Origin: Escherichia coli
GTDB taxonomy: Bacteria > Pseudomonadota > Gammaproteobacteria > Enterobacterales > Enterobacteriaceae
Assembly: GCF_016026235.1 (NCBI RefSeq)
Contig: NZ_CP065613.1
DNA length: 64,000 nt
Reading direction: 5' to 3' (one strand)
The position numbers and the translations under genes are program-made. Below the pieces are notes generated by a model that did not search any database, was not told where the DNA came from, and saw nothing but the letters and a program-made list of their open reading frames with translations. Every line of letters begins with the position of its first letter. Within the stretch, counting starts at the first letter, position 1. This document shows positions 14,353 to 15,857 of this stretch, piece by piece.

Positions 14353-15408
14353 ATGCGTAAAATCATTCATGTGGATATGGACTGCTTTTTCGCCGCAGTG
14401 GAGATGCGCGACAATCCCGCCCTGCGCGATATCCCTATTGCTATTGGCGGCAGCCGTGAACGTCGGGGGGTGATCAGCACCGCCAATTATCCCGCGCGTA
14501 AATTTGGCGTGCGTAGCGCTATGCCTACTGGGATGGCGCTCAAATTATGCCCACATCTCACCTTGCTTCCGGGGCGCTTTGACGCCTACAAAGAAGCCTC
14601 AAATCATATCCGTGAAATCTTCTCGCGCTACACCTCGCGCATTGAACCGTTGTCACTGGATGAGGCTTATCTCGATGTCACCGATAGCGTCCATTGCCAC
14701 GGTTCTGCGACCCTCATCGCCCAGGAAATCCGCCAGACGATTTTCAGCGAGCTGCAACTGACGGCGTCTGCGGGCGTGGCACCAGTAAAGTTTCTCGCCA
14801 AAATCGCCTCCGACATGAATAAACCCAACGGCCAGTTTGTGATTACGCCGGCAGAAGTTCCGGCATTTTTACAAACCTTACCACTGGCAAAAATCCCCGG
14901 CGTCGGCAAAGTCTCGGCGGCAAAACTGGAAGCGATGGGGCTGCGGACCTGCGGTGATGTACAAAAGTGTGATCTGGTGATGCTGCTTAAACGCTTTGGC
15001 AAATTTGGCCGCATTTTGTGGGAGCGTAGTCAGGGGATTGACGAACGCGATGTTAACAGCGAACGGTTGCGAAAATCCGTCGGCGTGGAACGCACGATGG
15101 CGGAAGATATTCATCACTGGTCTGAATGTGAGGCGATTATCGAGCGGCTGTATCCGGAACTTGAACGCCGTCTGGCAAAGGTAAAACCTGATTTACTGAT
15201 TGCTCGCCAGGGGGTGAAATTAAAGTTCGACGATTTTCAGCAAACCACCCAGGAGCACGTCTGGCCGCGGCTGAATAAAGCTGACTTAATCGCCACCGCG
15301 CGTAAAACCTGGGATGAACGCCGCGGCGGGCGAGGTGTGCGTCTGGTGGGGCTGCACGTGACGTTGCTGGATCCGCAAATGGAAAGACAACTGGTGCTGG
15401 GATTATGA
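14353..15408 (+). CDS. dinB: DNA polymerase IV
   Basis: 351-aa Y-family polymerase ([33 protein letters not shown]…). Confidence 0.95.
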
Positions 15409-15857
15409 ATAACATACAAATAAGAAACTATCAGCCTGGCGATTTTCAGCAACTATGCGCTATTTTCATTAGAGCGGTTACGATGACAGCCAGTGAGCAT
15501 TATTCACCACAACAAATTGCCGCCTGGGCGCAGATTGACGAATCTCGCTGGAAGGAGAAACTCGCGAAATCACAAGTGCGGGTTGCAGTCATTAATGCAC
15601 AACCGGTCGGCTTTATTACCTGCGTTGAACACTATATCGATATGTTATTTGTTGACCCTGAATACACCCGCCGTGGGGTTGCCAGCGCTTTGTTAAAACC
15701 TTTGATTAAGTCTGAATCCGAACTTACGGTAGATGCCAGCATAACTGCAAAACCCTTTTTTGAACGTTATGGTTTTCAGACAGTTAAGCAGCAGCGCGTT
15801 GAATGCCGGGGAGCGTGGTTTACTAATTTTTATATGCGATATAAACAGCAACATTAA
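15405..15857 (+). CDS. yafP: GNAT-family acetyltransferase
   Basis: 150-aa ORF; ATGA overlap with dinB stop; matches recalled YafP sequence. Confidence 0.85.

Follow-up and report, generated by a model that had tools for sequence, protein, structure and literature searches.

The dinB operon in the stretch of Escherichia coli DNA analysed here (64 kb at its full length, hereafter the window) is, with a probability that we put at roughly 0.93, an ordinary and natural two-gene version of this species' LexA-repressed dinB operon, in which dinB runs directly into yafP and the toxin-antitoxin (TA) genes yafN and yafO do not intervene. Both the two-gene form and its interpretation as a TA insertion point are already published and near textbook level. 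The evidence below concerns the anatomy of the operon, the exact boundaries of the segment by which it differs from E. coli K-12, the distribution of the alternative alleles, the order in which they may have arisen, and the probable mode of YafP synthesis.

Organization of the dinB operon in the window

The features of the operon and the basis of each assignment are listed in Table 1. The product of the first gene matched the NCBIfam equivalog for DNA polymerase IV over its full length (score 546 bits, cutoff 256), and it contains the Pfam domains IMS (PF00817), IMS_HHH (PF11798 / PF21999) and IMS_C (PF11799). It is identical to K-12 DinB at 350 of 351 residues, the sole change being S132 in place of the asparagine found in K-12, and the catalytic and steric-gate residues D8 and F13 are present as in the K-12 protein. 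The product of the second gene matched the NCBIfam equivalog for YafP (PRK09831) over residues 1-150 of 150 (score 327 bits, cutoff 146), with Pfam matches to Acetyltransf_10 (PF13673, E = 2.5e-19), Acetyltransf_7 and Acetyltransf_1; 142 of its 150 residues are shared with K-12 YafP and 8 differ. The TGA stop codon of dinB and the ATG start codon of yafP share the letters ATGA at positions 15405-15408, within a junction that reads CTGGGATTATGAATAAC.

Table 1. Features of the two-gene dinB operon, in window coordinates
Feature	Position	Strand	Basis and remarks
sigma-70-like promoter (candidate)	14302..14329	+	TTCTCA, 16-nt spacer, TATACT; consensus scan, 9/12 matches
LexA (SOS) box, CTGTATACTTTACCAG	14321..14336	+	CTG-N10-CAG pattern; identical to K-12
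Shine-Dalgarno sequence of dinB, AGGTGA	14344..14349	+	direct reading; ends 3 nt before the ATG
dinB, DNA polymerase IV, 351 aa	14353..15408	+	Pfam, NCBIfam NF002677
ATTATGA, single copy	15402..15408	+	direct repeat around the 759-bp yafNO segment in K-12; includes the ATGA overlap
yafP, GNAT-family N-acetyltransferase, 150 aa	15405..15857	+	Pfam, NCBIfam NF007338

The 72 nt 5′ of the dinB ATG, LexA box included, are identical to those of K-12, and a LexA-type box similar to that of the window (CTGTATACTTAAACAG) is retained in Citrobacter amalonaticus and Kluyvera. Based on this identity, LexA binding and induction by DNA damage are predicted for the operon in the window. The promoter sequence is likewise the same as in the K-12 dinB leader, with its -10-like TATACT located within the LexA box. 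The number of sites returned by the promoter scan in this region did not exceed that in shuffled sequences, and the promoter is accordingly listed as a candidate only. The scan for promoters and terminators detected no convincing terminator 3′ of yafP, the counts again being no higher than in shuffles.

The window lacks a precisely bounded 759-bp segment

A tblastn search of the whole 64-kb window with K-12 YafN and YafO did not detect either protein (best E = 1.2), although both queries match their own NCBIfam equivalogs, and a blastn search with the 759-bp K-12 segment that contains their genes produced only a 17-nt chance match. No Phd/YefM-like YafN followed by a YafO toxin, the arrangement that marks the YafNO type II TA system, was present within the 64-kb window. 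When positions 14200-16100 were aligned with K-12, the sequences showed 97.8% identity and a single 759-bp gap located exactly at the junction. The segment absent from the window comprises the dinB-yafN spacer, yafN, yafO and one copy of a 7-bp direct repeat, ATTATGA. In K-12 this repeat bounds the segment on both sides, in the context GGG-ATTATGA-TGTATAC at the dinB stop codon and TTTAT-ATTATGA-ATAACA at the yafP start codon; the window keeps one copy.

These results bear out an earlier note, made from the letters of this DNA, which had described an ATGA overlap between dinB and yafP (the open reading frame listing and direct reading agree), an intact LexA box (present at 14321-14336 with the K-12 sequence) and an operon of two genes (supported by both the open reading frames and the single gap in the K-12 alignment). 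The same note had placed yafN and yafO between dinB and yafP in K-12. The RefSeq annotation of MG1655 confirms this, giving the order lafU, dinB, yafN, yafO, yafP, rtcB and prfH remnants, pepD, gpt; yafP is the last of the four operon genes and does not precede yafN-yafO. The possibility raised there that yafNO might turn up immediately beside the junction is answered by the tblastn search, which found no YafN or YafO anywhere in the window.

Two common alleles and a rare third one in E. coli

The region was matched in 5,425 of 5,426 complete E. coli genomes. The yafNO segment was found in 2,847 of the 5,426 (with 80% or more of it covered in 2,831), nearly always as a single chromosomal copy, and an 80-nt sequence spanning the window junction was contiguous in 2,568. 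The two states together account for approximately 5,415 genomes, a polymorphism of about 52:47. The closest genome, FDAARGOS_943, is 99.9% identical to the window and collinear with it save for differences related to insertion sequences, and it contains the same two-gene operon. A search of plasmids with the cassette returned only K-12 F′ episomes and a few multi-megabase or otherwise unverified plasmid records, providing no evidence for a plasmid-borne yafNO reservoir. The variable TA site posited by the earlier note is evident in the 2,847 genomes with yafNO and the 2,568 with a bare junction, and its choice of the words "insertion point" agrees with Fraikin et al. 2020 (PMC7167474) and with the outgroup arrangements described below.

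A third and rare allele, with the order dinB-yafN-(yafO stub)-yafP, was identified in Escherichia sp. E1V33 (L003 3676-4000) and E. coli GF43 (L026 1852-2176). Here a 379-bp deletion between TTAT microhomologies has removed the toxin gene only and orphaned the antitoxin. What is left is a 10-codon open reading frame (MRVFKTKLIL) whose TGA overlaps the yafP ATG, again as ATGA. Coverage of the cassette below 80% was observed in 16 of the 2,847 cassette-positive genomes.

Origin and turnover of the yafNO cassette

Outside E. coli, dinB was found next to yafP and lacking yafNO in Escherichia marmotae (ATGA overlap, GTTATGA), C. amalonaticus (dinB TAA, 5 nt, yafP ATG) and Kluyvera ascorbata (dinB TAA, 2 nt, yafP ATG), three loci that have pepD-gpt-frsA-crl synteny in common, as well as in two further enterobacterial contigs of the two-gene form. 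Because these outgroups have dinB beside yafP in the absence of yafNO, the adjacency of the two genes appears to be older than the cassette. We therefore consider it probable that yafNO began as an insertion into the dinB-yafP junction.

Several observations count against, or qualify, this overall reading. The cassette is present in E. whittamii and in one divergent E. coli, and it is reported from E. fergusonii (PMC3105422). Additionally, Logan contig SRR26623995 (L030 1-40) contains the 3′ end of yafO directly upstream of a yafP that is 70% identical to that of E. coli, so that the cassette adjoins yafP in a distant lineage too; its junction differs (TTTTTAAAGAGAACCTTAAATCATGAAC) and lacks ATTATGA. 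The cassette carried by E. whittamii, E. fergusonii and the Logan contig must be either old or species-crossing, and the two-gene alleles of E. coli may all be secondary deletions. Nor does base composition set yafNO apart as later than yafP, because yafP is equally AT-rich (GC content of 42% for yafNO, 43% for yafP and 54% for dinB), and GC content was dropped as a mark of foreign origin. The scan for YafP-encoding contigs used exact 8-residue words and returned only 5 loci, missing E. fergusonii, E. albertii and E. ruysiae; the polarity within the genus therefore reflects a partial sample. A Thalassoglobus locus (L007) encoding a 35%-identical GNAT protein was rejected as having no bearing on dinB-yafP.

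Neighbour-joining trees of dinB and yafP (23 Escherichia sequences) showed the two-gene and four-gene alleles to be interleaved, in a small comparison panel of 9 four-gene and 11 two-gene sequences. Moreover, some flanking proteins are shared without any difference between the two forms: YafP WP_001059897.1 is found in CFT073 (two-gene) and AST216 (four-gene), and DinB WP_001226183.1 in FDAARGOS_943 and O111 (two-gene) and in 19AR0646 (four-gene). To account for the interleaving and the identical flanking proteins, the cassette must have been lost more than once, alleles must have been exchanged by recombination, or both must have happened. In E. coli the reshuffling of the two states would have involved precise removal of the cassette between the repeats, homologous recombination, or the two in combination. 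The direction proposed for these events, like the coupling mechanism discussed below, is a reading of sequence.

The cassette itself is less diverged than the genes on either side of it. Mean pairwise identity was 97.6% for the cassette, compared with 95.2% for dinB and 94.9% for yafP; between K-12 and E. whittamii the corresponding values were 98.0%, 93.8% and 93.6%. Divergence at third codon positions was 2.5% in yafO versus 12.7% in dinB. Nucleotide diversity (pi) was 0.01-0.02 over yafN-yafO, with yafO especially low, and 0.04-0.07 in dinB and yafP (L001 4210-4964 and eight other four-gene loci). The low diversity of the cassette in this small panel suggests that it has spread horizontally in recent times or that it is under unusual constraint.

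Gutierrez et al. 2011 (NAR 39:4192, PMC3105422) took the four-gene operon to be ancestral in Escherichia and, by parsimony, proposed at least three deletions through recombination between ATGA sequences; the full repeat is ATTATGA. Applied to the window, its lineage would have lost yafNO in situ between short repeats, by illegitimate recombination or replication slippage, and at least two further losses would have happened independently. We regard this account as a little short of even odds; insertion and deletion may each have played a part at the site. It is consistent with the exact placement of the 7-bp repeats at the ends of the segment, with the interleaved alleles and shared flanking alleles, and with the four-gene state of E. 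whittamii, and it has the published parsimony argument behind it. The window dinB is closest to that of four-gene K-12 (98.5%) and the window yafP to the cassette-bearing allele of E1V33 (98.5%), and the separate deletion of yafO between TTAT microhomologies indicates that such deletions do occur at this locus. However, the more distant relatives all have dinB-yafP and no cassette, and a 7-bp repeat in perfect register, which re-creates the dinB stop codon as well as the yafP start codon, is the trace expected of an insertion with target duplication. Furthermore, the flanks exceed the cassette in divergence by a factor of 2-5, a difference more easily reconciled with a later spread than with a long history of vertical inheritance.

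Another account, which we rate only slightly lower, is that the junction in the window never received an insertion. It would have persisted as a long-standing polymorphism or come back through homologous recombination, with yafNO passing as a selfish cassette from one Escherichia lineage to another. The cassette-free outgroup arrangement points this way, as do the high identity of the K-12 and E. whittamii cassettes (98.0%, with flanks at about 94%), the contrast between yafO and dinB at third positions (2.5% against 12.7%) and the trough of diversity over yafN-yafO; the view of yafNO as an insertion is stated by Fraikin et al. 2020 (PMC7167474). Conversely, the cassette has no mobility gene or known mechanism for re-insertion, and the two-gene alleles form no clade on either flank, in a small panel made up of 9 four-gene and 11 two-gene sequences.

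An origin of yafNO by insertion may be extended to a fuller scheme. The cassette would have entered the overlapping dinB-yafP junction and duplicated the target ATTATGA, moved between Escherichia lineages and species after the flanks had diverged, and would exit via the same repeat. Taken as a whole we consider this scheme rather unlikely. If true, it would make the junction a reversible TA "docking site", with the window as a primordial or precisely restored empty site. The new parts would be the target duplication, the youth of the cassette across species and the reversibility; the idea that yafNO inserted into a bicistron has been published before.

Synthesis of YafP and integrity of the junction

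The operon would be transcribed as a single dinB-yafP mRNA from the promoter overlapped by the LexA box, and dinB would be translated from its own Shine-Dalgarno sequence. Direct reading revealed no clear Shine-Dalgarno sequence before the yafP ATG at 15405, which overlaps the dinB stop codon in the mRNA as AUGA. Overlaps of this kind are a classic signal for translational coupling. Because yafP lacks a Shine-Dalgarno sequence and its ATG overlaps the dinB TGA, synthesis of YafP by termination and reinitiation is the most likely mechanism: ribosomes ending dinB would re-initiate on site, and the output of YafP would be tied to that of Pol IV.

Gutierrez et al. 2011 (PMC3105422) instead suggested, from the difference in reading frame and the lack of a Shine-Dalgarno sequence, that YafP arises by programmed translational frameshifting in dinB. 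While the window likewise has no clear Shine-Dalgarno sequence before 15405, we judge frameshifting highly improbable. In the four-gene form yafP has the same ATG and encodes the same N-terminus (MNNIQIRN), standing there as a separate cistron that starts 9 nt beyond the yafO stop codon; a gap of 2-5 nt separates the two genes, which do not overlap, in Kluyvera and C. amalonaticus; and the junction shows no obvious slippery heptamer. Termination-reinitiation on one bicistronic mRNA is the more economical reading, and the wording "translational frameshifting" of the 2011 paper seems unnecessary.

Finally, a collapse of yafNO during assembly or sequencing has a negligible probability, and is refuted by the identical junction in 2,568 complete genomes, the 99.9%-identical relative among them, and by PCR sequencing of the junction in ECOR strains (Gutierrez et al. 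2011, PMC3105422).

Other features of the window

Directly upstream of dinB is a Flag-2 lateral-flagella cluster (89-14282) that contains flgH to flgK, flgL, lafA, fliD/S/T/K/L, a gene for a FliA-like sigma factor, motA and lafU; K-12 keeps only lfhA and lafU fragments of Flag-2. The flgL gene (3489-4418) is open in the window, and its counterpart in 99.9%-identical FDAARGOS_943 carries an internal stop and has been annotated as a pseudogene. Downstream of yafP, positions 16163-16709 contain a truncated rtcB-like gene (88-aa open reading frame) and a prfH-like gene (RF-1 domain, 122-aa open reading frame), as in K-12; rtcB and prfH are intact in E. marmotae and in E. coli UTAK-5, CFT073 and 1517k.

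A tRNA-Thr(CGT) gene (24602-24677) follows proBA; it is thrW, the attachment site of prophage CP4-6 in K-12. By collinearity with FDAARGOS_943, it is followed in the window by a LysR-family fragment and paoABCD, with no prophage genes. Beside the ecp fimbrial operon, 7.3 kb of the window (38178-45532) are without counterpart in the compared part of FDAARGOS_943, where an IS1 and a truncated LysR gene occupy the equivalent place. Copies of IS1, IS600, ISEc60 and IS66 riddle FDAARGOS_943 and are absent from the window.

Relation to known systems

The two-gene operon represents a normal allele in E. coli, not a lesion, and its relevance lies mostly in correct annotation. Experiments on it have shown that YafP modulates the toxicity of nitroaromatic genotoxins, an effect that Pol IV counteracts. 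The locus offers a clean example of chromosomal TA pairs as dispensable passengers in housekeeping operons, and the small additions made here (the 7-bp repeat, the polarity given by the outgroups, the low diversity of the cassette and the toxin-only deletion) could serve studies of TA cassette turnover.

The two-gene form with its ATGA overlap was described by Gutierrez et al. 2011 (PMC3105422) in approximately 40-50% of strains, with group A mostly four-gene, group B1 two-gene and groups B2 and D mixed; E. fergusonii was four-gene. In the same work the two-gene operon of CFT073 yielded YafP-YFP that was inducible in stationary phase and by MMC. Fraikin et al. 2020 (PMC7167474) regard dinB-yafP lacking yafNO as the undisturbed bicistron and yafNO as a TA insertion.

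The CFT073 operon has the same gene content, ATGA overlap and dinB promoter and LexA box as the window. The two differ in allelic sequence only (dinB 95.5% and yafP 93.8% identical, with 95% identity over the 80 nt surrounding the junction), and the operon in the window adjoins an apparently intact Flag-2 lateral-flagella cluster. The four-gene operon of K-12 has a leader, LexA box and Shine-Dalgarno sequence identical to those of the window, and the same neighbours, with lafU upstream and the rtcB and prfH remnants, pepD and gpt downstream; in K-12, however, yafP begins 9 nt after the yafO stop codon, whereas in the window it overlaps the stop codon of dinB. Chromosomal type II TA cassettes located within housekeeping operons, such as relA-mazEF-mazG (PMC7167474), are similar in that a TA pair is present or absent, depending on the strain, between the cistrons of a functional bicistron. 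Compared with these, the window represents the empty site, with a 4-nt gene overlap in place of a spacer and a corresponding cassette that is bounded by a 7-bp direct repeat.
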